From an uncultured Pseudomonadota bacterium (lineage in GTDB: Bacteria; Myxococcota_A; Polyangia; Fen-1088), in the NCBI GenBank assembly GCA_963723305.1, contig CAVRRT010000088.1, positions 19,514 through 83,513 on the forward strand: a stretch of DNA of 64,000 nucleotides. Reading direction: 5' to 3'. The notes under the pieces are model-generated. The model had not been told where the DNA came from. It did not search any database and was given only the letters and a program-made list of their open reading frames with translations. This document shows positions 2,434 through 58,165 of this stretch, piece after piece (positions within the stretch are counted from its first letter, which is position 1; each line of letters starts with the position of its first letter). Both the position numbers and the translations under genes were made by a program.

Positions 2434-3459
2434 GTGGACTCTTTCTTCGACAGAGCGCTGCTGGCGGCGCGGCGGCTGGGCGCCTCGGACGTTCATCTGA
2501 AGCCGGGGCTGGCCCCGATTCTCCGGATCGCGGGCGAGCTGCGCACGCTGAGCGACGTCCCCCCGCTGTCGCGCGAGTTCCTCCACAGCCTGGGCCTCTC
2601 GCTGCTGAACGATCGCCGGCGCGAGACCCTGGAGCGAACGGGCGACGTGATCGTCGCGCTGGCCACCAGCAACGGCGGGCGGCAGCGGGCGCACCTCTTT
2701 CACCACCGCGGGGGCCTCAGCCTGGCGCTCCGCCTGATCCCGCCCGAGGTCCCGGCGTTCGACACGCTGGGGCTGCCGGCCGAGGCGCGCCAGCTGACCG
2801 AGCCGGGCGCCGGCCTGGTGATCGTGGCCGCCGGCCCGGGACAGGGCAAGACCACCACGCTGGCCGCGCTCGTGGAGAGCGTCACCGCGCGGCGCCCCTG
2901 CCGCGTCCTGACCATCGAGGACCCGGTCGAGTACCTGCTGAGGGACCGCCAGGGGGTGGTCGTCCAGCGAGAGGTGGGGACCGACGTCCCCTCGACCGTA
3001 GCGGCGCTCCGGGCGATGAGCCGGCAGGACGTCGACGTCCTGGTCATCGGCGATCTCGGCGACCCGGAGGCGGCGCGGCTGGCGATCGAGGCGGTCGAGA
3101 CGGGGCGGCTGGTCATCGCAGGATTGGCTGCGACGAGCGTTGCCCAGAGCGTTGCGCGGCTGACCGCGGGGCCCGGCGACGAGCACGAGCCGCTTCCGCG
3201 CGGGCGGGTCGCCGCCGCCCTGCGCGGCCTCATCGTCCAGCGGCTGGTCTCGACCGCCGGCGGGAAGGGGCGCCGGCCGGCCGGGACGCTGCTGCGGGTC
3301 GCCCCGGAAACGCGGGAGCGCCTCGCCGACGGGAGCGCCTCGCTCGAGACGCCCGAGCTGCCTGGCAGCCTGGCGTTCGAGCCCCCGGCCGAGCCGCCCC
3401 GAAAGCGGCGCGCAGGAGAAACGCGCACGGCTGTTGAGGACGACGCCGCGGACGACTAG
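2434..3459 (+). CDS. PilT/PilU-family ATPase paralogue with degenerate motifs
   Basis: ASDVHL, Walker [10 protein letters not shown], Asp box [13 protein letters not shown]. Walker B and His box are altered. GAGGG RBS-like sequence precedes GTG 2434. Confidence 0.85.
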
Positions 3460-3473
3460 TCTTCGCTCCCCCC

Positions 3474-42111: not shown

Positions 42112-45100
42112 ATGGTCGAGATTCCCGACTCTCTCGTTGAGAGGCTCAAGGCGCGTCAGGTCGTCCTGGTCACGGGTCTTGGTTGCAGCGAGCTGGCTGG
42201 CGCGCCGAGCTGGAAGACATTCATCGAATCGCTCGCCGATCGTCCGGTGTTCTCGGACGTGCGCGCACAGATCGCCGGGCTCATCGCCGCCGGGCGGCTC
42301 GGCGACGCGCTCGCGCTGATCCGCGATCTGCTCCCCCCGGCGCAGATCGAGGAGGCGATCGATCAGGCCTTCCGAGACGGGGCGCCGTTGCCCGACAGCG
42401 TCAGGCAGGCGGCCGACTTCCCCTGGCGCGCGGTGGTGACGACCGCCTTCGACGACCAGTGGGCGCGCGCGCTGGCGACGGCCACCGGGCGCCGCGATCC
42501 GCTGCGCGTGCTGGTCGGCATCGACGCCTCGGCGCGCGCGCAGTTCGGCGGGCCGGACACGCCGCTCTTGCACCTGTGCGGGCGGCGGGCGCTCCCCAAG
42601 AGCCTGTGCGTCGGGCCGGCGGAGGCGCGCGTGCGCCTCCTGCCGTCGGCCGGGATCGCCTGGCTCGATCAGCTGCGCCGCCGCCGGTCACTGGTGTTCA
42701 TCGGGTTTCGACCGACCGATCCCGATCTGGTCTGGCTGTCGTCCTGGCTCGGCGCGCACCCGGCCGCCGGCGGACCGCACTATCTCTTCCTCGATCTCTC
42801 GGCCGAGGCGGACCCCGACCGTGAGGCGATGGTCTGGGAGCTGCGCACCGGCCTCACCATCCTCCCCTGCCTCGAGGGGACCGCCGAGGCGATGGCCCGC
42901 CTGGCGAAGATCGCCGGATCGATCGGCACCCAGCTTCCCGGCTCGGACGGCGACGTCGATCTCGCTGCCTTGCTCGATCGCTGGGCGCGCAACCCGGCCG
43001 ATCCCGAGCCGCGCCAGGTCTTGGCCCGCGCCGAGTCGGCCTTGCGCGATGAAGAGCGCTGGGACCGCCTGGTCGAGCTCTTGCTCCGGCGCCTCGATCT
43101 GCAGGACGATCCGCGGCAGCAGATCGCGGCGCTGGGCGAGGTGGCGCGCCTCTTTCGCGACAGGCTCGACGCGCCCGAGCGGGCGCTCAAGGCGGAGATC
43201 GTCATGCTGCGGCTGCTCCCCACCGACGACGATCTGTGGGAGCGGCTGCGCGCCGACGCGCGCGCCGGCGCCGCCTGGGGGGCGCTGGCGACCGAGGCCC
43301 GCTGGGTCGCCGAGATGGCCGGCGCCACCCCCGCCGCCACCCGCATCTGGCGCGAGATCGCCCGCGTCGAGCGCGAGGAGCTCGATCGCCCCGCCGACGC
43401 GCTCGCCTCCTACGACCAGGCGCTGCTGGCGACGCCGGGACACCGCGAGGCGCGCGCCGAACAGATCGCGCTGCTCCGGGCGCTCGGCCGCTGGAGCGAG
43501 CTGGTGGCCGCGCTCAAGGCGTCGGCGGCCGAGACCGACGAGCCCGACCAGGCGATCGCCGGGCTGCTGGAGGCGGGCGAGATCCTCGAGGGGCCGGCCA
43601 ACGATCCCAACGGGGCCGTCGCCGCCTACGAGGCGACGCTGGCCATCGCCCCCGAGCGCGAGCGCGCCGTCACCGCGCTCGAGCGGCTCTACACGCGCGA
43701 GAAGCGCTGGGCCGATCTGGCGGCGCTGCTCGAGCGGCGGGCCGATCGCCTGCCGGCCAGCGAGGCGTCGGCGCTCCGCCACCGGCGCGTCGAAATTCTG
43801 GTCGATCATCTGGACGCGCTCGGACAGGCGGCGGAGCAGCTGGAGGCGCTGGCGGCGGAGGGGGATCGCAGCGCGCTCTTCAAGCTCGAGCAGATCTACC
43901 GGCGCGCCGAGCGGCACGACGACTATCTGCAGATCTTGCGCCGGCTGGCGGACGCCGCCGGCAACCAGCCCGAACGGATCGCGGCGCTGCGCCGCCTGGC
44001 GGCCGAGGCGGAGGCTCTCCCCGACGGTGAGGAGCAGGCCGCGCGCGCGCTCGACGAGATCTTGCGGCTCGATCCGCGCGACGCCGAGGCGTTCGGGGCG
44101 CTCACCAAGCTCTGTCGTGAGGGGGGACGCTTCGCGGCGCTGGCCGAGGCGCTGTCGCGGCGCCTCGAGGTCACGGAGACGGCGGAGGCGAAACGGGAGC
44201 TGCTGGTCTCGCTGGCCCAGATCTACGAGGACGAGCTCGAGGATCCCGAGCGCGCGCTCGACGCCTACGTCGCGGCCCGGAGCGCCGGCGATCGGCGCGA
44301 GGAGATCCACGAGGCGACGGCGCGGCTGGCGGAGCGCCTCAAGCGCTGGCCGCTCTGCGCCGAAGCGCTGGGGGCCTGGGCCGACGCCGCGACCGAGCCG
44401 GAGCTGCGCGCGGAGGTCCTGGTCGAAGCGGCGCGCGTCTTCGTCGAGCACCTCTCCGATGGCCCGGCGGCCGAGGCGGCGCTGGAACGGGTGGCCGCGC
44501 TGGCCCCCGAGCATCCGCGGGCGCTCGCCATCCTGGGACGGGTGCGCGAGGAAGGCGGCGGCTACGACCAGGCCGTGGCGCTCTACGAGCGGGCGGCCGG
44601 CAAGGAGCCCGACCGGAGCGAGCAGTCGGCGCTCCTCACCCGGGCCGCCGTCGTGCTGATGGAGCACGGCAAGGATGAGGACCGCGCCGCCGATCTCCTG
44701 GTGCGCGCGCTGGCGGCCGATCCCGGTCACCGCGACGCCAACGAGCGGCTGGTCGACGTCTACACCCGCCGCGAGCAGTGGGCCGACGTCGAGGCGCTGC
44801 TCGATCGTGAGGTGGCGAGCGCCCAGGCGGCGGCGCCGGCGGCAACGGGGGCAACAGTGCAAGGAAACGACGCCGATCGGCTGGCCGCGCTGCAGACGCA
44901 GCTCGGGCGAACGGCGTTGGCGCTGGGGAAGCCGGACAAGGCGCTCGCTTGCCTGGAGAGCGCGCACCGGCTCCGTCCCGAGCTGCTGCCGATGCTGCGC
45001 ACCTTCGCCGATTTCCGCTACGGACGCGATGAGTGGCAGGAGGCCGTCGCGCTCTACGAGTCGCTGCTGCGCCTGCACCGCGCCTCGCTGCCGACCGCCG

Positions 45101-46942
45101 AGCTGCCGGACCTCTTCTTGCGCCTCGGCCGGGCCAAGGGTGCGCTCGCCGACCCGGAGGGGGCGCTCGTCGCCACCCGTGAGGCGGCGGTGCTGGCGCC
45201 ACATTCACGGGCCGCGCGTGAGGCGCTCGCGCTGCTGCTGGCGGCGAAGCAAGATTGGGCCGGCTGGGTCGCCGAGCGCGAGGCGCTGGCCGGCATCATC
45301 GCCGAGCCGGAGCGGGGCGGCGTCTGGGAGGAGATCGCCGACGCCAGCGCGACGCACCTCGGTGACCGCGCCCGTGCCGAGGCCGCCTACCGCCGCGCCT
45401 TCGAGGCGGAGCCCACGCGGCGGGCGCCGATCGAGAAGCTGCTGGCGATCTACAAGGACGAGAGCCGGTTCGAGCCGGCGATCGAGATGCTGGCGGCGCT
45501 GGCCCAGATCGAAGCGGCGCCGGCCGCGCGGGCGGCGCTGCGGCGCGAGGCGGCCCGGCTGCTGCTCGACCAGGTGAATCGGCCCCTGGAGGCGGCGGCG
45601 ATGCTGGAACGCGCGCTCGACGACGCGCCCGACATGATCGACGCCTTCGACGAGCTGTGCCGCCTGCGTGAGGACGCCATGGATTGGGAGGGGTTGGTGG
45701 CCAGCCACCGCACCATGCTCGAGCGCTTGCCGCCCGAGGCGCCGCGCCCGCTCCGGCTGCGGCTCTGGACGCGCATGGGGAACGTGGCGCTGCGCCAGCT
45801 GCGCGATCGCAAGCTGGCCATGACCGCCTTCGAAGCGGCGGTGACGCTCGATCCCGAGGACCACGCCAAGCAGGAGACGCTGGCCCACGTCTACGAGCTG
45901 GTAGGGCCCGACGCGCGGGCGCGCGCCATCGCCGCGCACCAGCGGCTCATCGCCCACGATCCCCACCGCACCGACTCCTACCTGGCGCTGGCCAAGCTCT
46001 ACGGCGAGACCGGCGAGACCGACAAACGGTGGTGCGTCGCCGCGACGCTCTGGTACCTGAAGAAGATCACCCCCGCGCTCGACGAGCTGTTCCGGCGCCA
46101 CCGTCCGCCCCGGGTGCGGGGAGCCGAGCGGCCGTTCACCGAGGAGACCTGGAGCCGGGTGCGCCATCCCGACGAGGACCCGCGCATCGGCGACATGTTC
46201 GGCGTCGCCTCACCGTTTCTCGCCGTGTCGGCCGCCTACGATCCGTCCCACGTCGGGATCAAAAAGCGCGGGCAGGTCGACCTCACGCACGACGGCAGCC
46301 TCTGGGCGCAAACGCTGGTTGCGCTGGCCAGGACGCTGGGGCTCCCGCTCCCCGACGTCTACACGATGGAGGGCGAGTCGGGGCAGACCACCCTGGTCAA
46401 CGTCCGCCACCGCAGCGGCCCGCGGCCGACGCTTCTGCTCGGCCCGCCGACGATGCGGCGAAACAGCTTCGATCTGGTCTTCGACCTGGCGCCGCATTTT
46501 TCGTTCCTGCGCCCCGAACGCTTCCCCAAGGTGGCGCTGCGGACGCCGGCGATTCTCCACGGCGTCCTCGGGGTGTTGCGCGCGCTCGGCAAACCGAACG
46601 GGGGGCCGCCGCTCGACGGCGAGGCCGGTCAGCTCAAGGCGCACCTCGGGCGGGCCATGCCGCCCGCCGCGCTGGCCAAGCTGGCCGAGGCCAGCAGCAA
46701 GCTGGGGGCCGACGCAGAGCCGGTCGACATCGAGAAGTGGATCGCGGCGACGGATTCTGTCGGCCGCCCGCCTGGCGCTGGCCCTCACCGGCGAGCTGGC
46801 GGCGGCGTTCCGGGTGATCTCCAGCGAGCCGATCCCGCTTTCGACGATCCCCGCCCACCGCCGGATGGCCGACCTGGTGGCGTTCTCCGTCAGCGACGAC
46901 TACTTCACGGTCCGAAGCCAGCTGGGGCTGGCGATCGCCTAG
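42112..46942 (+). CDS. Giant protein: N-terminal SIR2-like domain with substituted catalytic residues, long TPR array, conserved myxobacterial-type C-terminal domain (frameshift near 46760)
   Basis: VVLVTGLGCS..G.PSW, VVTTAFDD, LLHLCG, LVFIGF..DPD; many TPR-like units (LERLY..EKRWADLAALLE); C-terminus ..SAARLALALTGEL..DLVAFSVSDDYFTVRSQLGLAIA in ORF 46319..46942. Confidence 0.85.
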
Positions 46943-47870
46943 TCAGCGATCTCAACCTGGGCCCGCGCCGCGCCAGCACCGCCAGGCCGGCCGCGGTGAC
47001 CGGGACGACCTGCACCACGTGGTAGAGGACCGCGAAGGCGACCGCCGCCGGCTTCCCGATCCTGGCCAGGACCAGGACCACCGCGGCGGCGCTCTCGAAC
47101 GTTCCCGCGGCGGCCGGCAGCGCCGGGACCGAGATGGCCAGGTTGATGCCGAGCAGGACGACGACCGCCAGCACCGGCCCTACCGTGAGCCCGATGGCGC
47201 GGGCGCAGAGCATGATCATGACGATCTCGCAGGTCCAGGCCCCGAGCGACGCGCCCAGCGCCTCGGCGGTCGCCCCCGAGCTCCGGAGAACGGAGATCCC
47301 AGGAGCGATCCGGGCGGCCAGCGTCCGCAGGAACCCGGGACCGCCAATCCCGCGAGCGTCCGTGGTTCGTCGGAGGATGGCGAGCGCACCGACCGCCACC
47401 CCCAGGGCGACCGCGCCGGCGCCGAGCGCCCACGACTGCTCGGGCGCGAAGCAGGTGGCGAGCAGGCCCAGCGCCGCCAGGACCGCGACCTCAAGCAACT
47501 TCTCGACCACGGCGATCGCCGTGGCGGTCGACTTGGAGATCCCCGCGCAGCTCTCCAGCATGTAGAGGCGCGCCACGTCGCCCGCCCGCAAGGGGAAGAC
47601 GTTGTTGAGCGCCGACGAGGTCAGCACGGCGAGAAACAGATCCCCGAACGAGGCCCGCGCCGGAGCGAGCAACAGCCGCAGCCGCGCGGTCCGGATCATC
47701 AGCATCAACCCGTTGAGGGCGACCACGGCGCCCAGCAGATCGAGCCTGGCGCGCCGGATCGCCGCCCAGACCTCGCCCCAACTCAAACGATGGGCGACCA
47801 GGGCGACGGCCGCCACCCCCACCAGGCCGCGCGCCGCCAGGGCCGCTACCCGGCGCCGCCGCGTGGGCAC
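46905..47870 (-). CDS. Lysylphosphatidylglycerol-synthase TM-domain (flippase-like, UPF0104) protein
   Basis: NNVFPLRAGDVAR, VVEKLLE, PALPAAAGTFE, FAVLYH; GAGGAA before GTG 47870. Confidence 0.88.
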   Translation of the reverse strand: MPTRRRRVAALAARGLVGVAAVALVAHRLSWGEVWAAIRRARLDLLGAVVALNGLMLMIRTARLRLLLAPARASFGDLFLAVLTSSALNNVFPLRAGDVARLYMLESCAGISKSTATAIAVVEKLLEVAVLAALGLLATCFAPEQSWALGAGAVALGVAVGALAILRRTTDARGIGGPGFLRTLAARIAPGISVLRSSGATAEALGASLGAWTCEIVMIMLCARAIGLTVGPVLAVVVLLGINLAISVPALPAAAGTFESAAAVVLVLARIGKPAAVAFAVLYHVVQVVPVTAAGLAVLARRGPRLRSLTRRSPAPAGFGP

Positions 47871-47874
47871 TTCC

Positions 47875-48780
47875 TCACCCGACCTGATGGGATCGCCTGC
47901 GCAACGCCGCCGCCGCCTGCCCCTCGGCCGGAACAAAGCGCTCGACGCGCGCGGGCTCGCCGTCCCGGGGCTGCGCGGCCTGCGCGGTCTGCGCCGGCGG
48001 GAGCGCTGGACCGTCGAGCCGCTTCATCGTCCAGATGATGCGGGCGACGGCGGTCCCGGTGTTGAGCAGGGCCAGGATGACCAGCGTCCCGGCGGTGATC
48101 GCATAGATCGGATGCGGCACGAACCCTTCGAATCGGTGCCCGATGAACGGCGAGATGGCCAGCGCCGTCGAGAGCAGCGTGATCCGGTCGGCCCGCTGCA
48201 TGAGCCCCTCGGCGCCGGTCAGGCCCAGCGCCTCGGCGCGCGTCCGGGCGTAGCTGATGACGAACGACATGATGAGCGCCACCAGCGCGGCGTACACGAT
48301 CGGGGACCCCGCGTAGTAGACGACGCAGCCGCCGAACATGAGGCCGTCGGAAAGCCGGTCGATGGTCGAGTCGAAGAACGCGCCGCGCGGGCTCGAGAGG
48401 TGCTGCGCGCGGGCGACCTCGCCGTCCATCACGTCCAGCGCGCCCGTGGCGACGAGCAGAGAGCCGCCCAGCGCGAAGTGGCCCGTCGCGATGGCGATCG
48501 CCGTCAGCAGTGACACCACCAGCCCGAGCCCGGTGAAGAAGCTCGCCGACTGCCCGCTCCGGATGGCGAGCCGACAGACCGGCCTCGTCAACCAATAAAA
48601 GTATCCGATGAGCAGGGGGGCCAGCAGGCGCCGACCAGCGCCCCGCGGGCGCAGCGTCGGCAGGGCCGACAGGCCGAGCCGCACACGCACGGCGTAGGTG
48701 ACAAGCGGTATCGAGAAGAACAGCAAGAACCCCACGAGAAACACCAGGTCCAGCGCCTGCAGTGACAGATGGGGAGTCAC
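47875..48780 (-). CDS. CDP-alcohol phosphatidyltransferase (PI/PIP-synthase-like)
   Basis: Signature DVMDGEVAR..GAFFDSTIDRLSD; ISYARTRAEALG..GLMQRADR; AAGGAGG RBS before GTG 48780. Confidence 0.93.
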   Translation of the reverse strand: MTPHLSLQALDLVFLVGFLLFFSIPLVTYAVRVRLGLSALPTLRPRGAGRRLLAPLLIGYFYWLTRPVCRLAIRSGQSASFFTGLGLVVSLLTAIAIATGHFALGGSLLVATGALDVMDGEVARAQHLSSPRGAFFDSTIDRLSDGLMFGGCVVYYAGSPIVYAALVALIMSFVISYARTRAEALGLTGAEGLMQRADRITLLSTALAISPFIGHRFEGFVPHPIYAITAGTLVILALLNTGTAVARIIWTMKRLDGPALPPAQTAQAAQPRDGEPARVERFVPAEGQAAAALRRRSHQVG

Positions 48781-48944
48781 GGCCCGACCTCCTTCTGCGG
48801 TGGGATGTCGTCGACGACCCACAGCCGTTCTGTGATCACGACCCACATCAGCTTCAGGTAGGCCAGGACGGTCAGTTGACCAAGGCGCCCAACAAGCACG
48901 AGCTGGCTTCGCAACGTCGTAGTCCTACTGATTGAGTTAACCAT
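48777..48944 (-). CDS. Putative 55-aa small protein coupled to the CDP-alcohol phosphotransferase
   Basis: MVNSISRTTTLRSQLVLVGRLGQLTVLAYLKLMWVVITERLWVVDDIPPQKEVGP; TGA overlaps the downstream GTG (GTGA). Confidence 0.45.
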   Translation of the reverse strand: MVNSISRTTTLRSQLVLVGRLGQLTVLAYLKLMWVVITERLWVVDDIPPQKEVGP

Positions 48945-48963
48945 CTGAACCACCCTCGCCAGA

Positions 48964-48979
48964 TGCAAGCGCGGCACCG
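48964..48979 (-). promoter_or_regulatory. Possible sigma54 (-24/-12) element
   Basis: CGGTGCCGCGCTTGCA: GG-N10-GC with TTGCA; weak -24 match. Confidence 0.3.
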
Positions 48980-49036
48980 CCGCCCGTGCCGGGCGCGCCG
49001 GCCCGTAACACAGCGGAAGCGCAGGCGGCGCGGCTG

Positions 49037-51581
49037 TCAGTATTTGGACGAATCGTCCAATGGCTGACGGCGCGACCGCGCGGCGGCCCCGGCGATCGAC
49101 GGCACGAACAGCAGCGCCGCGAGGAGGCAGCTCACCTCACCGAGGTCGGCCAGCTTTCCGAACGAGCGGAGCGCCCCGTTCGAGGCCATGAACAGCGAGC
49201 TGTAGCCGATGATGGTCGTCGTCGAGCAGAGGGCCACCGCGCTCCCCGTTTCGGCCAGGGCGCGCGTGCGGTGCGCCGCCGGCTCCGCGCCCAGGCGGGC
49301 GCAGATGTTCACCGCGTAATCGACGCCGATCCCGAGCGTGATCGGAAGCGCCACGAAGTTGAGGAAGTTGAGCCTCAACCCCAGCGCCGCGCCGGCGCCC
49401 CCCATCCAGAGCATGCCGGCCAACAGCGAGCCGAGCACCAGCGCGACGCTGCGGAGCTCCCTGAAAAGAATGACCACCAGGAACACCACGCCGGCGAAGG
49501 CGACCTCCGTCGCCAGCGGCCCGTCGTGTGAGATCGAACGGAGCATCGCCGCGAATATCGAGGAATTACCCGCCGCGCTGACCAGCTCTCCGCGCGGCAG
49601 CCGAACATCCTGGAACGTGTCGGACATCCGGATCAGGGAATGGCCGTCCCAGTTGGCCCAGACGCGAACCGGGTAGATGAGCGCCACTCGCCCCAGCGTG
49701 CCGTCGACCTCCCGGAAGCGGCGCGCGATCGGCTCGGGGAGATCCTGGATGGTCGAGCCGCCGCAGATCGTCGGGCGGGGCCCAGGCGTCCATCTCCTTC
49801 CTCTGCTCGGGATCGAGCAGCTCGAAGGCCGGATCGCGGAGCTGCCGGCGCAGGTCGGCGATCACCGCCAGCTTGGCCTCCTGGTCCTTCGGCAGCGCCT
49901 CGTGCGCGGTGGAGACCGCCGAGAGCAGCCCGCTCGTCGGCTCGCCGGCCGCCAGCCGGCGTTGGCAGATTTCGCGCAGCTCGCCCGGATCGGACGCCCG
50001 CGGATCCTTGGCGTCGGTGAGACCGGCGGCGCAGTCCTTGACGAGCAGGGCGTCCCGAAAGGCGGCCGCGTCGTCCGCCCGCGGGAGCAGCGCCACCCCC
50101 ACCGGGGAGAGATCCTGCGGGAAGATCCGACCCACCCGCACGTAGAGATCGCCGGCGCCATGCTGGCGGCTCTGCTGGTTCCGGAGCTTCGAGAAATCGT
50201 ACTCGAAGGGCCGCTTCAGGACGGGGGCGATGGCCCAGGCCGCCAGCAGCGTGATCGCGCCGACGGCCAGGAGCAACGCGCGCGGGTGGTCGATGATCGC
50301 CGTGGCGATCCGAATCCGCACCTTGGGCGGCGACGGCTGCCGACCCGGCGACCGGCGAATTCTCTCCCACAGGCAGATGAGGGCGGGACAGTAGCTGTAG
50401 GTGAAGAGCCAGCAGAGGATCATCCCCACCCCACCGACCTCGCCGAACTGCTGAAAGCCGCGGAACTTGGTCAGCGCCAGGCTTCCGTAGGCGATGGCGG
50501 CCGCCAGCGCCGCCGTCAGCGTCGGCTTGGCCGTCGTGCGCAGCGCGATCGCCAGCGCGTCTTCTACGCTCGCTTCCGGAAGGCGCGTCCGCTGCTCCCG
50601 ATAGCGGGCCAGCAGGATGATGCCGAAGTTGATCCCGTTGCCGAGGATGATCGACCCGAGGAACGCCGTGTTGGTGTTCAGGTACCCGATCGTCAGCGCG
50701 GCGATGGCGAACGCGCTGGCCACGCCGAGCAGCGTGGGAAAGAAGATGTAGGTCAGCGAGACCACGCTCCGGTAGTAGAGCGAGATGATCAGCAAGACGG
50801 CCACCGAGCAGACCAGGGAGACCCACTCGATGTCGGACTTGAGCGCGTCGTGCTCCTCGATGGCGGTCTCGACGTCGCCGGTGATCTGCGCGCGCACCGG
50901 GCCGAACCGGGCGGGGTTGGTGGCGGCGATCACCCTCTCGACGTCGTCACGGATCTGGAAGCCCGAAAGGTCACCCGTCCCCGACGACTTGGTCCAGGTG
51001 ACGATGGCGAGCAGCGAACGGTCGGCGTTCTCGTAGTAGCCGCTGGGGAACGGCGCCGGGCCGTGCCGGCGCTCGATGCTCCGCTTGAGGCGTCTGAGAT
51101 CGACCGCCGGATCGTCCTTCTCCTCGCCCAGATCGTCGTCGGCGAACGGGATGAACGCCGGATTCTTCTTGGAGACGATCAGCTTCTTCAGATCGTCGTC
51201 GGACCGCCGGAGATCGCCCAGGTCGGCGTAGAGGATCTTGTTGTGCTCGTAGAACGATCGGGTGGCATCCGGCCGGTAGTCGATGGCGCCCAGGTCCCGC
51301 CCGACGAGCGGCTGCAGGTTCGCCGCCAGCGCGTCGGCGAACCGTTCGTTGGCGCCCGGGTCGGGCCCCTCCACCGCGACCACCAGCGTCGCGCGGGGGC
51401 CCACCCGGTCGCCGATCTGCTGCAAGAGCTTGAGCTCGGGATCCTCCAGCGGCAGAAGCTCGCGAAAGTCCGACCGCAGCCGCAGCCGGCCGGCCGTCGA
51501 GAGCGCGAGCACGAAGAGGACCAGCGCCGCGGCGCAGATCGCCAGGTCGTACCGGCTGAGGGCCTTGACGTACCGGTTCAT
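49037..51581 (-). CDS. MMPL/RND-family lipid transporter (frameshift near 49765)
   Basis: Two RND halves: LRSDFRELLP, IILGNGINFGIILLARY, FRGFQQFG; second half NFVALPITLGIGVDYAVN, TTTIIGYSSL in ORF 49037..49687. Confidence 0.92.
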
Positions 51582-53281
51582 GAGGGTGGGGGGCGCACAA
51601 TCCGCTCGTGCCGCTCCTGGCTCATTCGCGCGGGGGCGGCCGGTGGCGCGTAGAGCGCCAGGTCCCCCTGCGCGTGCAGCAACCTCCAGCCGCGCCCGGC
51701 CAGCAGCGTCCGAAAGTCGCCCGGCGCCGCCCAGGTGAGCAGGTAGTCGTACGACGCCCCGAGCGCCGCGATGCGCGCCTCGGCCGCCAGGCGAACGTCG
51801 TCGCAGGAGAGCGAGGCCGAGAACCGCCGCACGGCGGTGCAGAGGCGCCCCTGGATGAGCGCGTACGGCTCATCCTCCGCGTCCGACGGAAAGGGAGATT
51901 CCACCAGATGGATGGGGAGCTCCCGGTAACGGTAGGGAAACCGCGTCTCGTGCCAGGCGAACGCGTACGGGGTCACCACGTCACGGGCCAGGCCGTAATA
52001 TCCCCAGGCGTGCAGGAAAGGCTTCACCAGGATCGAAGGTGAGCGGGGATCGAAGATCACCGGGTAGACGCGGCTCCCCTGGCGCACGTAGGGGATCCCC
52101 GACGAAAAGTCGTCGAGCGCGCGGCCGAGACGACCGAAGTCCCGGGCCAGGAGCGCGACGCCCCCCAGCCCCGAGACGAGCGCCAGCAGCGTCACGCGGC
52201 GGCGCGCAGGGGGCGAGAGCGCGACGCCGCCGTAACAGAGCAGGGAGAAGACCAACAGCGGCCGCAGCCGCGGCGTGAGGTCGGAGCCGAGGACGATGTG
52301 CGGAAGCGCGAAGTAGAGAAGCGCCAGGATCGCGGCGGCGTGAAGCGGCCACCGCGCCGCCGCCGGTGTCGCCGCGGCCCGGCGCGCGGCGAGCGGCAGC
52401 GCGATGAGCGCGCAGAGCGGCGGCCCCAACGCCGCGAGATCGATGAGGTGGTAGCGCATGGCGAACTCGACGAAGAACGCGCCGATCGCCGAGGGAAAGT
52501 CGTACGTCTCCCAGCCCGAGACGGTGGGATCGAGCGCCACGCGCGAGACGAGTATCCCCCGCCCCTGCGCGGCCCAGAGGATCAGGGACGGCAGGAGCGC
52601 CAGCGCGGTACGACCGGCGCCGGCCAGCCGCGCCGCTGGATTTGTGCGCGATCCGTCGGCCGGGAAGACGATTCGGATCGCGGTGAGCAGCAGAAGGACG
52701 GCAAAGGTAACGGTGTGCGCGAGGAAGACCACCAGGGCCGAGGCGGCCAGCGCCAGCGCCGCGGCGGGGCGCGGCCGCCCTCCGTCGCGCGCCACGATCC
52801 CCAGCCAGACCAGCGCCGGTGGTAGCGACAGCACGTAGTTGTAGAGCCCCTGGATGGCGAACCAGCTCCAGACCAGCGGCAGGAGGAGCAGCGCCAGCGG
52901 CGCGCTCGCCGGGGCGGCGGCGCGCAGGAAGAAGAGGCCGGCCAGCGGCAGCGCCAGCGCGTAGCCGGAGAGCACCAGCCGGTGCGCGAGGTCGATGGAG
53001 ATCCCACACCGGCCGAGCCCGAGCATGAGGAGGTGGAAGAGGACGTTCGTCTTCAGTCCCAGCGTCGAGGCGAAGGCCGCGGCCAGCGACGGGGAGGCCG
53101 TCCCGTTCGTCAGCGCGCGCAGCACCCCGACGGCATAGAGGTGATCCCCGGTGTCCTGACCGGGGAAGTAGCGAAACGCCCAGAGCGGGACCAGGTTGGC
53201 GGCCGCCACGACGGCGAAGACGGCCCACTCCCAGCGGGTGAGCGCCCCCGGTCGCGGCGATTCCTGAAGAGGGAGCGTCAT
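51578..53281 (-). CDS. Polytopic membrane protein, GT-C-like
   Basis: True start ATG 53281 (MTLPLQESP..), ATGA-coupled at both ends; first loop RYFPGQDTGDH after TM1; GLYNY; more than 10 TM helices and a soluble C-terminal domain. Confidence 0.7.
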   Translation of the reverse strand: MTLPLQESPRPGALTRWEWAVFAVVAAANLVPLWAFRYFPGQDTGDHLYAVGVLRALTNGTASPSLAAAFASTLGLKTNVLFHLLMLGLGRCGISIDLAHRLVLSGYALALPLAGLFFLRAAAPASAPLALLLLPLVWSWFAIQGLYNYVLSLPPALVWLGIVARDGGRPRPAAALALAASALVVFLAHTVTFAVLLLLTAIRIVFPADGSRTNPAARLAGAGRTALALLPSLILWAAQGRGILVSRVALDPTVSGWETYDFPSAIGAFFVEFAMRYHLIDLAALGPPLCALIALPLAARRAAATPAAARWPLHAAAILALLYFALPHIVLGSDLTPRLRPLLVFSLLCYGGVALSPPARRRVTLLALVSGLGGVALLARDFGRLGRALDDFSSGIPYVRQGSRVYPVIFDPRSPSILVKPFLHAWGYYGLARDVVTPYAFAWHETRFPYRYRELPIHLVESPFPSDAEDEPYALIQGRLCTAVRRFSASLSCDDVRLAAEARIAALGASYDYLLTWAAPGDFRTLLAGRGWRLLHAQGDLALYAPPAAPARMSQERHERIVRPPPS

Positions 53282-54873
53282 CGCCTGGCGAAGACCCGCG
53301 TTCCAGCGATGTCGCCGATGGGTGAATAGTTGCGGTCGACGATCGACTGCAGCCGCGGGAACCGAGAGAGCGGAAATTTTCCGTACGCGCCGAGGTTTCC
53401 GGGAGAGGTGTCGACGAACAGCTGCGGCAGACGGTCCTCGAGATCGGTGACGAACATCTCCCAGCTCTCGCCGACGACGTTGGCCGAGGCGTCGGCTTGG
53501 GGATCGGACTGGGTCCGTGTGGCGGGCGAGAGGCCGGTCAAGTAGTTGGAGAAGACGAAGCGGCTTCCGAGCGGCCGGTCGGCCTCGAAGTAGAGAACCG
53601 GGACGTTTCCCCAGACCACCAGCCCGTCGCCCGGGGAGCTGTGCGTGCGGACAAAACCGGCGATGGCTCCGTAGTCCGGACCGGTGGCGCCGATCGCCTG
53701 CGCCGCTGGCGCGTGGAGGAGGCCGATGAGAAGAAAGAGCGCCGCCGGCACCGCCAGCGCCGCCAGGCCGAGGAGGCGCCGCGAACGCCAGAGGCGCGCC
53801 GCCTCGGGCGCCGCCAGCGCCGCCAGCGGCGCCGTCACCTGGTGAAAGTAGTGGCCGAAGAACCGTCCCCCGGCGGTGATGGCCAGCGCGCTCACCGCGC
53901 ACCAGGCGAGCATGAACGGCCCCACCGGATCTTCCCCCCGCCGGCGCCAGGCCCCGCGCGCGGCCCGCGCCCCCAGAACCCAGATGAAGAGGGCGGGAAG
54001 GACACCGTACGAGAGGCGCGGTATGGCACGCGGCGCGACCTCCGTGAGCCGCAGCCCCTGCCGGATGTAGGCAGCGTTGAACGAAAACCAGAAGAGAGCG
54101 GCGTCGAGCGCCCCCGCCCGCCTCATCGCCACCAGCGCGACCCCGAGCGGCGCGACGAACCCCAGCGCGACCGCTCCCCACCCGCCGAGGAGCTGCGCCG
54201 CGCGACGGCGATGCACGATCGCCAGATGGAGCGCGTAGAGCGGCAGGTGCACCGCCGCCTGGTACTTGTAGAGGACGGCGACGCCGACCAGGGCCCCGGC
54301 GGCGAGGAGATCGGCGGTGCGCACCTCGGCGAAGCCCCGCAGGTAGAACAGCACCGACGCCGTCAGCGGCAGCAGCATGTAGAGCTCGCAGTTCGCGGCC
54401 AGCGCGTCGAAGTCGAGCAGCGTGGTGGTGAAGACGATGAAGAGCAGCGCTGCCGCAAACGGGACGCCGTCGGACAGGCCGTCCGACACGCTGGGGCATG
54501 ATGAAGATGCAGAAGCTGGCGCCGCAGATGAACGCCATCCGCAGGCGTCGCCGGCCGCCCGGCGCGTCGTTCGCAAGGCGATCCGCCCCAGCAGGAGCGC
54601 CGTGGCCCACACGACGGCGATGGTGAGGAGGTGCAGGAGCAGCATTCCGCCCCGCGGTCCGGCCAGCGCCTGCGTCGCCGCGTACGTCAGGTAGATGAGC
54701 GGTGGCTTGTGATCGACGACGTCCCGGTAAAGGACGCGGCCGTGCAGCATCTCGCGCGCCACCACGCAGTAGGTCGCCTCGTCGTCGCTCAGACAGGGGC
54801 GCGCGAGCGAGACGATCCGCAGGCCCAAGCAGAGGGCCAGCAGCAGGAGCGCGAGCCGGGTCCGCCTGGTCAT
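53278..54873 (-). CDS. ArnT/PMT-like (GT-C) glycosyltransferase
   Basis: Start ATG 54873 (MTRRTRL..); DDEATY, LYRDVVDHKPP, ANCELYM, GGRFFGHYF. Confidence 0.85.
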   Translation of the reverse strand: MTRRTRLALLLLALCLGLRIVSLARPCLSDDEATYCVVAREMLHGRVLYRDVVDHKPPLIYLTYAATQALAGPRGGMLLLHLLTIAVVWATALLLGRIALRTTRRAAGDACGWRSSAAPASASSSCPSVSDGLSDGVPFAAALLFIVFTTTLLDFDALAANCELYMLLPLTASVLFYLRGFAEVRTADLLAAGALVGVAVLYKYQAAVHLPLYALHLAIVHRRRAAQLLGGWGAVALGFVAPLGVALVAMRRAGALDAALFWFSFNAAYIRQGLRLTEVAPRAIPRLSYGVLPALFIWVLGARAARGAWRRRGEDPVGPFMLAWCAVSALAITAGGRFFGHYFHQVTAPLAALAAPEAARLWRSRRLLGLAALAVPAALFLLIGLLHAPAAQAIGATGPDYGAIAGFVRTHSSPGDGLVVWGNVPVLYFEADRPLGSRFVFSNYLTGLSPATRTQSDPQADASANVVGESWEMFVTDLEDRLPQLFVDTSPGNLGAYGKFPLSRFPRLQSIVDRNYSPIGDIAGTRVFARR

Positions 54874-56060
54874 GCCGAGCGCGCTGACGGCAGTGGTTCG
54901 GTCGCGCCCCCGCGGAGCCGGGCGTAAAGGGCCAGCACCTGCCCGGTGATCTGCCGCCAGTCGAAGCGCGCCGCCGTTCGACGCCCGGCCTCCGCGCAGC
55001 GCCGCCGCGCCGCCGGGTCGACCAGCAGCTCGTTCGCCGCCTGGGCGAGCGCGCGCGACCCGGGATCGATGGAGACGTCGACCAGGCGCCCTTCGACGCC
55101 GTCCCGCATGACGTTGCGGAAGCCGGGCGTGTCGGCCGCGACGACCGCGCACCCCGCGGCCATCGCCTCGAGCACGATGATCCCGAAGGTGCCACCGACC
55201 GCCGGGCAGAGCAGCAGGTCTCCCGACGCGTAATAGCTGCTTCGCTCCCGGCCCGGGACGAACCCCACGAAGTGGGCGTCGGCGCGCAGGTCGACGGGGA
55301 CCATCGCCTCGTACCGCGGCCGCAGCGGACCGTCCCCCACCAAGATCAGCCGGGCGTCGGTCCCCATCCGGCGAACGCCGACCCAGGCGCGGATCACGCG
55401 GTCGACGCCGTTGCGCGGATCGAACCGACCGACGTGAAGGACGTTCAGGCGGCCGTCGTCGAGCTCGGGGCGGCGGCGGCCCGAAGAGAACGCCTCCAGG
55501 TCCACGCCGTTGGGGATGACGTGCCAGGGCGCCCTGAAATAGCGGCGGACGCCGGTGAGCGCGGTGTCGGAGACGCCGACCGCGGCGTGCAGCCAATCGA
55601 CGTAGCGTTGCAGCCGCCGCTTGAGCAGGGCGAGGAGCAGGCTGCGATCGAAAGCGCTGTGAAAGGTGCCGACGTTGACGGCCTCCGAGCTGCGCAGCGC
55701 GAGCAGCGGCAGCGTCGGCATCAGGGGAGAGTGGACGTGCACCACGTCGAACTGTTCCGCGCGGATCACCTCACGCATCCGCGCCGAAAGGCCGGCGCCG
55801 CTCGACATACGCGCGATGGAGCCACCCGAAAACAGGGGGACCGAGACCCCGATGCGGATGACCTCGTTGTCGTCGTCCGCGCGCCGCGCGCCCCGAGAAG
55901 CGAGCCCGCCGCCCAGCGAGGCCAGTCCATCTGTCACGAGGGGTGTCAAGATTCGAACGTCGTGACCAGCACGACGCGCCTCCCGCGCGAAGTTGTGGAC
56001 GTGCTCCTGGATGCCGCCCAGGGTCGGGTAGTAGTACTCGGTGACGATCCCTATGCGCAT
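54870..56060 (-). CDS. GT4 glycosyltransferase, PimA-like
   Basis: MRIGIVTEYYYPTLGGIQEHV, FDVVHVHSP, VGTFH, IPNGVD, FGIIVLEAMAAG. Confidence 0.9.
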   Translation of the reverse strand: MRIGIVTEYYYPTLGGIQEHVHNFAREARRAGHDVRILTPLVTDGLASLGGGLASRGARRADDDNEVIRIGVSVPLFSGGSIARMSSGAGLSARMREVIRAEQFDVVHVHSPLMPTLPLLALRSSEAVNVGTFHSAFDRSLLLALLKRRLQRYVDWLHAAVGVSDTALTGVRRYFRAPWHVIPNGVDLEAFSSGRRRPELDDGRLNVLHVGRFDPRNGVDRVIRAWVGVRRMGTDARLILVGDGPLRPRYEAMVPVDLRADAHFVGFVPGRERSSYYASGDLLLCPAVGGTFGIIVLEAMAAGCAVVAADTPGFRNVMRDGVEGRLVDVSIDPGSRALAQAANELLVDPAARRRCAEAGRRTAARFDWRQITGQVLALYARLRGGATEPLPSARSA

Positions 56061-56106
56061 CGGCCGCCGTCCCGCGTAAGAGGAAGTGGTGCCGACTCAG
56101 CCTTAG

Positions 56107-56122
56107 TGCAAGGTGAAGACCA
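56107..56122 (-). promoter_or_regulatory. Possible sigma54 (-24/-12) promoter of the GT4-led operon
   Basis: TGGTCTTCACCTTGCA: TGG-N10-GC with TTGCA, 46 nt upstream of ATG 56060. Confidence 0.4.
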
Positions 56123-56232
56123 CGCAGCAGGAGAAGATCGAGCTTCCAGCAAGCTCGATCGCGACGGCGAATCCGCACACCGGCCGTCGGCGCTGGCGGG
56201 AGCGGGAGGGCGCAGGCGGGAGCGGGACGGCG

Positions 56233-58165
56233 TTAGCGGGAGCGGGAGCGGGACGGATTGGGCGCGCGTCGCGGCGGCTGCGTCTCGGCCGGCATTCCGC
56301 GCGGAAACATGGGGATTGCGATGATGAACGTCGATCCGCTTCCCGGGCGGTTCTGGACACGAATGCGCCCGCCATGCGCCTCGATGTACTCCTTCGAAAT
56401 CACCAACCCCAGACCGACGCTCGCCCGCCGGCGCCCGTCGTTTCCCCAGCGGTGCCGATCGAAGATCTGTTCGGCCTCCCCAGGCGCGATTCCCGGACCG
56501 CTGTCGGAGATGGCGACCTCCACATCCTCGCCCACCTGCTTCACCGCCAGGTCGACCTCTCCGCCGTCCTCACTGATCTCCACCGCGTTGGCGACCACGT
56601 TGCTCACGGCCTGGACCATCCGGTGGCGGTCGACGAACGCGGTCAGCCCCTTCTTCTCGGTGATGGCGCGCAGCCGGACCGCGCGCGCCTCGGCCAGCGG
56701 ACGAAACAGAATCGGCCACCTCGCTCATGATCGAGTCGATCGACTCCATCACCCGGCCCAAAACCAGCGCGCCCGACTCGATGACGAACATGGCGCCGAG
56801 ATCGGCGAGCAGTCAATCGGCCAGCGTGGCCGCGCTTCGAATCTGAGTCGCCAGCGGACTTCCGTTCTGCCTGGCCAGCTCGGTGGCGATGAAGCCGATG
56901 GCGTTCAGCGAGTTGCGAAGGTCATGAGAGACCATCGAGAGCACTTCCTCTCGGGTGTGCTTGGCGTCGAGGGCCAGTCCGTAGAGACGCGCGTTCTCCA
57001 GGGCCAGCGCCAGCCGATCGGCCAAGGCCTCGACGCTGGGGACGTCCTCCGCCACGAAGCGCCTGCTCTCGTCGACGATGAGCAAGGAAAGAAGGCCCGC
57101 CGGTTTCCCCCGCACGAGCAGGGGGACCCGCAGCGCGGAGCGGACGCCCAGCTTCTGGAGGCCCTCGCTGTCGTCGGCGACCACGCTTCGCAGCTCGGGC
57201 GCGGCGAACGGAAGGGCCCGACCCGCGCCGGCGGTGGCCAGAGCCTGGCCGGCCAAACCCTCCCGCAGCTTGACCGCCGCGCGCTTCAGGCGGTCGCCGT
57301 CCAGCAGATCGACCAGGCAGACGTCGGCGATGCGGGGGACGATCAGCGAGGTCAGGCTGCGCAGGATCTCGTCGCGATCCAGGGACAGCGAGAGCTCCTC
57401 CCCGGCGTCCGCGATGAGGCTCATCGCCCGCTCGGCCCGTTTGCTCTCGGTCAGATCGCGGATCGAAAGGCTGGTCCGAAGCTGGCCCTGGCGATCGGTG
57501 AAGACCTCCGACGAGAGCTCGACCTCGATCCTGGTGCCGTCCCCGCGGACCATCCTGATCTCGCCCCGCGCCGCCCCCGACCGATCTCGTTTCTCGATCA
57601 GCGTGGCGACGCGCGGATCGGTCGGATCGCAGACGCCGGCGCGTCCCAGCCGGCAGATCTCCTGCTCCGTCCGCTGCAGCATGCGGCACGCTGCAGGGTT
57701 CGCCGCCAGCGTCTCGCCCGTGGGCGCGGTCAACAGAATGCCGTCAACACTGTGCTCGAACAGCGATCGGTACCGCGCCTCGCTCTCCAACAGAGCGTCG
57801 ACCGCCCTCCGTTGCGCGGAGATCTCTCGAAAATAGACGGTCACCCCCGACGCCGAGGGGTAGACCTTGTGCGCAAGCCAGCACTGCTTGCCCGGCGAGA
57901 GCATCTCGAACTCGATCGGCGACTTCCCCGCAGCGGCCCTCAGGTACTGCTTTGCGACCGGCGACCCCACGCCGTCGGGGTAAACGTCCCAGGCGACCTT
58001 CCCCAACATCTGGGCTCTGGGAACCCCGAAGTGGTCTTCAGCCGCGCGGTTGATGAAAGTGAACCGCCACTCCCTGTCGAAGGCGACGACTCCGTCGCTG
58101 ATCCGATCGAGAATCTCTTCCACCTGGCGATCGAGACCGCCCGATCCCAACGACAGCTCCACCAT
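56233..58165 (-). CDS. Cytoplasmic sensor histidine kinase PAS-PAS-GAF-like-HisKA-HATPase (frameshifts near 56820 and 56710)
   Basis: PAS (DREWRFTFINRAAE; ANPAACRML); H-box VSHDLRN; N-box NVVANA; DSGPGI; GLGLVIS. Confidence 0.9.

Follow-up and report, generated by a model that had tools for sequence, protein, structure and literature searches.

Glycosylated phosphatidylinositols are hallmark envelope lipids of Actinobacteria and also underlie the glycosylphosphatidylinositol (GPI) anchors of eukaryotes. In mycobacteria, a transferase of the phosphatidylinositol phosphate (PIP) synthase (PIPS) type and a PimA-type glycosyltransferase of family 4 (GT4) are encoded in one operon. The phosphatidylinositol mannoside (PIM) pathway of mycobacteria and corynebacteria (PgsA1, PimA, PimE) combines cytoplasmic glycosylation by GT-B enzymes with subsequent periplasmic steps by GT-C enzymes; to our knowledge, its flippase is still unknown. 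The GPI-anchor precursor is built by a PIG-A GT4 step on phosphatidylinositol (PI), a flip across the membrane and then GT-C mannosyltransferases. Here we describe a gene cluster in a 64,000-nucleotide stretch of DNA (the window; positions 19,514 to 83,513 of contig CAVRRT010000088.1, assembly GCA_963723305.1) from an uncultured bacterium of the class Polyangia. From its sequence, the cluster is probably an operon whose product is a glycosylated, inositol-based phospholipid of the envelope, resembling a PIM or a GPI, predicted in a Gram-negative host.

The cluster resembles the PIM pathway in that it pairs the genes for a PIPS-type transferase and a PimA-type GT4, and in that cytoplasmic GT-B glycosylation would be followed by periplasmic GT-C steps. 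It differs in its Gram-negative Polyangia host, in a transferase with additional N-terminal sequence, which stands on a separate long branch, in a GT4 that lacks E199 and E274 of PimA and carries PRNG instead of PRKG, in GT-C proteins that are GT39-like and orphan rather than GT87/PimE-like, and in its built-in flippase-like and RND transporter genes together with the lack of an acyltransferase. The order of enzyme classes acting on an inositol lipid (GT4, flip, GT-C) is the same as in the eukaryotic GPI precursor, whereas the cluster gives no sign of a de-N-acetylase, of ethanolamine-phosphate transfer or of protein attachment. A further likeness is to BT_1521–BT_1526 of Bacteroides thetaiotaomicron, which, according to the accessible text of Heaver et al (2022; PMC9246714), makes PI via a PIP intermediate and places a PIP synthase (BT_1523 type) near a gene annotated as LPG synthase (BT_1521). 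As described in that text, the Bacteroides cluster additionally contains MIPS, a PgpA-like PIP phosphatase, an AUR1-like inositol-phosphoceramide synthase and a GtrA protein, and the description shows no PimA-like GT4, GT-C or RND gene; in the window genome, by comparison, contigs other than that of the cluster carry ino1 and a PgpA homolog. Full-text searches, with subscription journals mostly outside their coverage, found no literature that ties myxobacteria to PIM-type genes or lipids.

The window belongs to contig C88 of a metagenome-assembled genome (G000) of 4.41 Mb in 190 contigs. GC3 frame analysis and the listing of open reading frames (ORFs) placed the cluster at 46905–56060, entirely on the minus strand, with the following features in the order of transcription:

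54870..56060, minus strand: PimA-like GT4 glycosyltransferase of 396 aa, the first gene of the operon (Pfam GT4/GT1 domains and a match to PimA)
53278..54873, minus strand: GT-C1, a membrane protein of 531 aa of the GT39/ArnT-like (PMT_2) type (weak PMT_2 match, homolog names)
51578..53281, minus strand: GT-C2, an orphan membrane protein of 567 aa with a predicted GT-C fold (AlphaFold2 model, Foldseek, VIA)
49037..51581, minus strand: HpnN-like MMPL/HAE3 RND lipid transporter, one gene in two frames (49566–51581 and 49037–49687; MMPL domains)
48847..49036, minus strand: intergenic gap of ~190 nt between transporter and transferase (sequence inspection)
47875..48846, minus strand: PIP/AIP-synthase-like CDP-alcohol phosphatidyltransferase of 323 aa (NCBIfam, solved matches, motif, tree)
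46905..47870, minus strand: flippase-like LPG_synthase_TM protein of ~321 aa counted from a GTG at 47870, the longest ORF starting at 47936 (PF03706, TIGR00374)

An earlier note on this DNA, made from the sequence alone, had counted seven co-oriented ORFs. The co-orientation was confirmed, but the small ORF among them is the second half of the MMPL gene, so that the cluster is real and consists of six genes rather than seven. Sequence inspection revealed ATGA start/stop overlaps at three junctions (GT4/GT-C1, GT-C1/GT-C2 and GT-C2/MMPL), by which the first four genes are predicted to be translationally coupled. The note had seen ATGA/GTGA coupling through most of the row. The gap of ~190 nt between transporter and transferase may hold an internal transcription start. 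Scans of 46700–56400 for regulatory sites were uninformative: no promoter-like site was found against 0.2 expected, with no sigma-70-like site in a consensus scan, and four terminator-like sites against 4.1 expected.

The transferase (Pfam CDP-OH_P_transf, E 2.2e-11) obtained its highest NCBIfam scores from the AIPS (121.3 bits), PIPS (107.1) and BT1523-type (91.3) models, compared with 17 bits each for PgsA and PssA, and its best solved matches were Mycobacterium tuberculosis PgsA1 (E 2–5e-19) and, next, other PIP synthases. The CDP-alcohol motif D-x2-D-G-x2-A-R-x8-G-x3-D-x3-D is complete, and its residues D138, D141, G142, A145, R146, G155, D159 and D163 are invariant in 13/13 aligned sequences. 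Equally invariant among the 13 aligned homologs are R221 and R269, which align with R155 and R195 of the M. tuberculosis PIP synthase (MtPIPS), the two residues that bind the phosphate of inositol phosphate according to the accessible text of Clarke et al (2015). Relative to MtPIPS, the transferase retains S132 and has arginine in place of K135, and a conserved extra helix region is present at its N-terminus. The window genome contains nine CDP-alcohol transferase matches, including a true PgsA (154 bits, cut-off 109) and a true PssA (118 bits, cut-off 107). A 101-row tree split 93 PIPS-like sequences from eight own-genome paralogs with 99% support; within the PIPS-like clade the window type forms a long-branched group of eight same-genus sequences, whose placement relative to the Actinomycetota clade and the rest is not settled by this tree. 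Because the tree separates the transferase from the paralogs of its own genome, whose CDP-alcohol transferases include the PgsA and the PssA, the enzyme does not group with the housekeeping PGP synthases against which the earlier note had proposed to compare it. Sequence comparison therefore supports siding it with PIP/AIP synthases and not with housekeeping PGP or PS synthases.

These residues also bear on the nature of the lipid, for which the earlier note had allowed a glycosylated phospho- or sphingolipid. Ceramide phosphoinositol has been reported in Myxococcus xanthus (Lorenzen et al, 2014, as cited in the accessible text of Heaver et al, 2022; PMC9246714), which would fit a glycosylated inositol-phosphoceramide, that is, a sphingolipid in place of a glycerolipid. 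Such a product is nevertheless improbable, given that the transferase carries the CDP-alcohol motif and PIP synthase residues and that the ceramide step in Bacteroides needs, according to the same text, a separate AUR1-like enzyme acting on PI, of which a Pfam scan found none in the cluster. The sphingolipid option was not borne out, although no search aimed at serine palmitoyltransferase was made. A probe of the window genome with PAP2_C (PF14360) for an AUR1-like synthase gave no match either, but the control in B. thetaiotaomicron was silent too and the genome is only 74.7% complete, and the probe is hence uninformative.

The GT4 matched Glycos_transf_1 (E 4.7e-28) and Glyco_transf_4 (E 8.9e-26) in Pfam. 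Among solved structures its best match was PimA from M. smegmatis (E 2e-46, 162 bits, residues 1–386), and the next solved GT4 reached 63 bits, over the C-terminal domain only. This full-length match, some 100 bits above those to other solved GT4s, justifies the label PimA-like and upholds the assignment made in the earlier note. The accessible text of PMC9202250 lists ten PimA residues as critical by mutagenesis (Y9, Q18, Y62, N63, R68, H118, R196, E199, R201 and E274). Six of them (Y9, Q18, R68, H118, R196 and R201) are kept in the window's GT4, and the other four are altered, as Y62S, N63G and the absence of E199 and E274. In PimA, according to the same text, E274 binds the mannose of GDP-mannose, docking puts E199 on the mannose moiety too, and K202 in the PRKG loop binds the beta-phosphate of GDP-mannose; this loop reads PRNG (K202N) in the GT4. 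K202N and the loss of both glutamates are fixed in 13/13 same-genus GT4s, while the RKG and the glutamate of ES(F/L)G are kept in 9/9 GT4s located beside PIPS genes in Chloroflexota and Actinomycetota. Since the changes are conserved rather than decaying, they point to a rebuilt donor pocket in this clade. With the mannose-binding glutamates gone and PRNG in place of PRKG, mannose is not to be assumed as the donor sugar. The sugar transferred need not be mannose, and the name mannoside is not implied.

The earlier note had recommended a genome-wide search for ino1, which it had not found in the cluster. A family-model match to ino1 is present outside the cluster on contig C19 (L001, G000:C19:26040-29378, minus strand), as a frame-broken gene matched in four frames, with at least three frame changes in ~1.1 kb. 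By analogy with BT_1525, a PgpA homolog on contig C162 is a possible PIP phosphatase. A second inositol-related cluster of the same genome lies on contig C9 (L132, G000:C9:10100-30055) and comprises an intact MMPL paralog, an Omp85-like gene, a HAD hydrolase, a MobA-like nucleotidyltransferase, an Asn-synthase-like gene, a methyltransferase, two GT4s, a Wzx-like flippase, an inositol monophosphatase and an IPCT/DIPPS-like CDP-alcohol transferase. In gene content it is similar to the 'alternative' route through CDP-inositol that has been proposed for Prevotella and Bacteroides vulgatus; in the accessible text of Heaver et al (2022; PMC9246714), a nucleotidyltransferase, a CDP-alcohol transferase and a HAD hydrolase are proposed as a CDP-inositol route to inositol lipids.

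The C9 genes (nucleotidyltransferase, HAD hydrolase, inositol monophosphatase and Wzx-like flippase) are among the observations that would suit a different role for the transferase and the GT4 of the window, namely the synthesis, instead of a membrane PI glycoside, of a glycosyl-inositol-phosphate compound that is either soluble or attached to a polyprenyl carrier, for example a compatible solute or a polymer precursor on a carrier. The CDP-alcohol family includes di-myo-inositol-phosphate synthases, to which the transferase gave a weak match (DIPPS, 40 bits in NCBIfam), and the substitutions Y62S and N63G fall in the PI-binding loop of PimA. We nonetheless consider this role very improbable: the transferase scores three times as high with the AIPS and PIPS models as with DIPPS, the GT4/transferase pair is linked with genes for a flippase-like lipid protein and an RND lipid transporter, and the GT4 keeps the six PimA-type residues named above.

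Downstream of the GT4 lie the two membrane proteins that the earlier note had called GT-C and GT-C-like, a description that is supported for GT-C1 by sequence and homolog names and for GT-C2 by its predicted fold. GT-C1 matched PMT_2 with E 5.7e-05 and 23.8 bits, below the Pfam cut-off of 26.1. Directly after its first transmembrane helix (TM1), in the first extracytoplasmic loop, it carries SDDEATY with a DDE motif; an acidic first-loop motif is a mark of the GT39/GT83 (PMT_2) family. We collected 405 GT-C1 homologs, of which many at 56–92% identity bear PF13231, and the names given to them in their sources are ArnT-like or 'glycosyltransferase family 39 protein [Polyangia bacterium]', which also supports a place for the host in Polyangia. 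No sequence similarity was detectable between GT-C1 and GT-C2. A side observation concerns the metagenomic protein P0079 (789 aa), which matches the start of GT-C2 as well as GT-C1 (the latter with 67% identity and 85% coverage) and may have arisen by read-through, by fusion or by a frame error where the two coupled genes meet.

GT-C2 gave no match in Pfam and NCBIfam scans, and the 82 homologs recovered by a word-based search, nearly all at 54% identity or more, are all unnamed or 'hypothetical'. Its AlphaFold2 model, computed from a 30-sequence alignment, reached a pLDDT of 85.2 and a pTM of 0.86. The first 25 among the Foldseek matches listed were all GT-C proteins (AftD, DPY19, ArnT, PglB, ALG12, AftA/B and STT3). 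Using VIA, we found 41 chains at Z ≥ 8, headed by Pmt4 (Z 16.4), ArnT (16.3, with 429 residues aligned over 6–549), AglB (15.6) and AftD (15.5); the GPI-transamidase subunit PIG-U was weak (8.1) and PimE reached only 7.4. In the 30-sequence alignment, Asp43, which belongs to a GQD in the first loop, is nearly invariant. On the strength of the model, we are confident that GT-C2 adopts a GT-C fold. A profile search of 1.84 billion representatives returned 2573 clusters at E ≤ 0.001, 945 at E ≤ 1e-10 and 26 at E ≤ 1e-30, counted as clusters at 50% identity, with the 945 (E up to 1e-10) taken as a lower bound for the relatives of GT-C2. The remote relatives (P0206–P0346) are mostly 500–590 aa long, and 0/40 full-length sequences sampled from them matched Pfam at E 0.01. 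In the ESM Atlas, GT-C2 retrieved unannotated look-alike clusters only, one of them auto-named 'mannosyltransferase family protein', which we treat as a lead only. From the modelled GT-C fold, the many profile-search clusters and the lack of a Pfam match in the 40 sampled relatives, GT-C2 is predicted to be part of a sizeable family with this fold for which current domain libraries contain no model.

The last gene of the cluster encodes a protein with clear matches to LPG_synthase_TM (PF03706, E 2e-41, 142.8 bits against a cut-off of 33.4) and to the flippase-like domain TIGR00374 (75.6 bits against 43.2). At ~321–343 aa it was found to lack the aminoacyl-PG synthase part of MprF, the bifunc_MprF model scoring 14 bits against a cut-off of 600. 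Translation most likely starts at the GTG at 47870, a few bases past the transferase stop and behind GAGGAA. No solved structure was matched by sequence at E up to 1. In three same-genus genomes, a second PimA-like GT4 stands near an LPG_synthase_TM paralog: the GT4 (36–37% identical to the window's) adjoins the paralog (29–30%) at G004:C99:69739-71833 and G014:C130:13530-15602, and the two lie within ~1 kb of each other in G002 (C492:4736-7553). As LPG_synthase_TM proteins recur beside PimA-like GT4s, and beside PIP synthases both here and in the Bacteroides cluster as described in the accessible text, the window's protein is a candidate inositol-glycolipid flippase.

The transporter matched MMPL in Pfam with E 1.9e-24, and its gene encodes both transmembrane halves of the family, though in two frames in the window. 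Its best solved match is HpnN (E 2.5e-18, residues 18–475), the hopanoid RND transporter of Burkholderia and likewise an HAE3/MMPL-type lipid shuttle, with the mycobacterial MmpL4 and MmpL5 scoring lower. In contrast to HpnN, the transporter misses the NCBIfam equivalog cut-offs by far (145 versus 752 bits and 107 versus 1100 bits), and its gene context suggests an inositol lipid, not a hopanoid. A lipid-type RND protein thus fits the MMPL transporter of the earlier note, but not with a separate small ORF at its side. That ORF (49037–49687, 216 aa) bears the second MMPL half (positions 115–306 of Pfam MMPL, 552–730 of 733 in NCBIfam HAE3) and overlaps the end of the 671-aa ORF (49566–51581) in a different frame. 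In the 3/3 close relatives examined (G004, G020 and G014), the gene is a single 847-aa ORF, and their similarity to the window's first frame ends at residue 609, near 49754. The base at 49753 is missing from contigs of three of four soil metagenome runs, while the fourth (X1) covers the site without the deletion; this check used short Logan contigs of related strains (90–99% alike) at a depth of 2–4, and speaks for relatives rather than for the window's own population. We therefore rejected a separate small gene or a split transporter in favour of a single-base frame change, with one extra base at 49753.

Similar frame breaks occur elsewhere in the assembly. The essential alaS (3438–6159, plus strand) is split across two frames near 4313–4330, with profile positions 3–260 in one and 263–551 in the other. 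A PAS-PAS-GAF sensor histidine kinase gene (56233–58165, minus strand) is broken between HisKA and HATPase_c into ORFs of 450 and 128 aa, and in G014 (L035) the orthologous gene reads through in a single frame. Because alaS, the sensor kinase and ino1 are broken in the same way, the frame change in the transporter is probably an assembly indel error rather than a pseudogene or a split transporter.

To compare gene order, we examined a same-genus set of 24 genomes, 17 of which contain a transferase ortholog with an identity of at least 49%; gene neighbourhoods were compared for 12 of the 17. A GT4 of 69–86% identity lies within ~6 kb of the transferase in 12/12 contexts, and the flippase-like gene directly follows the transferase in nine. 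One genome (G004) has the same six-gene order as the window, and two (G020 and G014) have it minus the flippase-like gene. Three (G021, G001 and G003) contain the GT4, transferase and flippase genes only, with an RND remnant in G001 and G003. In G015, G010 and G011 the GT4 is divergent to the transferase–flippase pair and accompanied by a paralogous MMPL gene; G006 and G016 have a divergent form with the RND gene, a family 2 glycosyltransferase (GT2) and GT-C1, and G006 an Omp85-like gene too, to which the Omp85-like gene of the C9 cluster is 72% identical. In G002 the GT4 and transferase are divergent, with the flippase-like ortholog 21 kb off. Altogether, GT-C1 and the orthologous RND gene occur in 5/12 contexts and GT-C2 in 3/12. 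The synteny that the earlier note had suggested checking is thus firm for the GT4 and transferase, but the GT-C, RND and flippase-like genes vary and form no fixed unit with them. These comparisons suggest that the GT4/transferase pair is the invariant core and the later steps are lineage-variable add-ons.

The GT2 of G006 and G016, which lies between the RND gene and GT-C1 (L040 3101–4765 and L047 5838–7493, both plus strand), is a protein of 554 aa with a cysteine-rich N-terminal part and a DAD motif in the style of DPM1/GtrB; the window genome contains only weak relatives of it (25–36% identity). From these features, it could supply a polyprenyl-phosphate sugar donor.

The variability of the later genes raises the alternative that an inositol glycolipid is made by the GT4/transferase pair alone, or by this pair plus the flippase-like gene, and that the two GT-Cs and the RND transporter are an unrelated inserted module, in which the GT-Cs could modify lipid A, proteins or another envelope polymer and the transporter could carry another lipid, for example a hopanoid. 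The frequencies of GT-C1, RND and GT-C2 just given fit such an insertion, as do the three sister species with the GT4, transferase and flippase genes alone, two of them with an RND remnant, the ArnT-like or GT39 names of GT-C1 relatives, and HpnN as the best solved match of the transporter. Against it, the ATGA overlaps join the GT4 to these very genes, the GT-C1 ortholog and the RND gene appear again beside the GT4 in other arrangements, and the transporter comes nowhere near the HpnN equivalog cut-off. Moreover, an MMPL gene also accompanies distant paralogous sets in G009 and G022, in which a transferase ~33% identical to the window's sits with GT4 and LPG_synthase_TM genes, the GT4 there being not specifically PimA-like. 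These recurring sets, like the pairs of a second PimA-like GT4 with an LPG_synthase_TM paralog in G004, G014 and G002, support the view that the genes form a functional set. We judge an unrelated module to be rather unlikely.

Beyond the genus, we surveyed 151 Polyangia genomes, accepting a PimA-like GT4 at E ≤ 1e-40 and a PIPS-like gene at E ≤ 1e-25. The GT4 was present in 24 genomes from seven families, and all 24 also contain the PIPS-like gene, compared with 64/151 overall; as the relatives are not independent, this co-occurrence does not amount to a formal test. Of the genomes from outside the family of the window organism, only G124, a member of another family, has both on one contig, and there they are adjacent. 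Among the matches listed, 80 PIPS loci of other phyla (29–44% identity) had a GT4 nearby in nine cases and an MMPL gene in two. The nearby GT4s were 37–39% identical to the window's in three Chloroflexota and 27–32% in six Actinomycetota-type loci. The flippase-like protein gave no tblastn match at E 1e-4 at these 80 loci, but tblastn is not sensitive enough for a family this divergent.

The probable reading remains an operon that makes a glycosylated phospholipid with inositol in its head group, and we propose the following route. Observed in the cluster are the families and folds of its proteins, the conserved residues for catalysis and for binding inositol phosphate, and the synteny. All else, from the substrates and the product to the topology and the sequence in which the enzymes act, we infer from homology and from the linkage of the genes. 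Inositol phosphate would be provided by the ino1 located elsewhere in the genome. The PIPS-like transferase would join the phosphatidyl group of a CDP-activated diradylglycerol to inositol phosphate, giving PIP, which a phosphatase encoded outside the cluster would trim to PI. At the cytoplasmic face, the PimA-like GT4 would add the first sugar, for which mannose is not required, and the LPG_synthase_TM protein would flip the glycolipid to the periplasmic leaflet. There, the two GT-C enzymes, where present, would extend the head group from polyprenyl-phosphate sugars, and the HpnN-like RND transporter would move the lipid towards the outer membrane.

Several observations weigh against this proposal. 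The transferase falls below the NCBIfam equivalog cut-offs (121.3 versus 180 bits for AIPS, 107.1 versus 170 for PIPS and 91.3 versus 350 for the BT1523 type) and sits on its own long branch in the tree. Four of the ten critical PimA residues are altered in the GT4 and the PRNG loop is found in 13/13 same-genus sequences, so that its donor, and possibly its acceptor, may differ from those of PimA. In view of the PimA deviations and the sub-threshold PIPS scores, we describe the cluster enzymes as working like PgsA1 and PimA, not as their orthologs. The GT-C and RND genes are absent from three sister species, and the flippase-like ortholog is missing from G020 and G014, which keep the GT-C set and have only a 29–30% paralog elsewhere; the later steps would therefore be either optional or taken over by other genes. 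GT4 and transferase occupy different contigs in most other Polyangia families. A Pfam scan found no PIP phosphatase, acyltransferase or polyprenyl-phosphate sugar synthase within the cluster. The RND gene and ino1 are both frame-broken as assembled, and the host is an uncultured metagenome-assembled genome that is 74.7% complete. The earlier note had itself reported that neither an inositol-phosphate synthase nor an acyltransferase lies within the cluster, and the scan of the window ORFs agreed. Its view of a self-contained pathway is matched by the transferase, GT4, GT-C and RND families, but less so by the variable GT-C, RND and flippase-like genes and by a chemistry deduced from homology.

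As for the surroundings, sensor kinase genes lie upstream of the cluster and a convergent gene for a 1637-aa TPR protein downstream, and the remaining window genes serve housekeeping and signalling, with no obvious tie to the cluster. The TPR-rich protein (42112–47025, plus strand) has a weak N-terminal SIR2_2 match (E 0.0065); the 3' end of its gene overlaps the flippase-like gene by ~120 nt, and its position is conserved in relatives. Related strains, with contigs 90–99% identical, were present in 4/4 soil metagenome runs, each from a separate study.

Taken jointly, the boldest version of these proposals would have soil myxobacteria make an outer-membrane PIM/GPI-like glycolipid with a first sugar other than mannose, with the LPG_synthase_TM protein as its missing flippase and GT-C2 as the founder of a large, uncatalogued GT-C family; we put this combination forward only tentatively. 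Among the novelties predicted here, the most testable are the LPG_synthase_TM protein as a candidate flippase for inositol glycolipids, the GT4 as a PimA relative with a putatively rebuilt sugar pocket, and GT-C2 as an entry to a GT-C family outside current domain libraries. If the proposal is true, this Myxococcota set of PIPS, PimA-like, flippase-like, GT-C and RND proteins would extend glycosyl-PI chemistry to a Gram-negative envelope.

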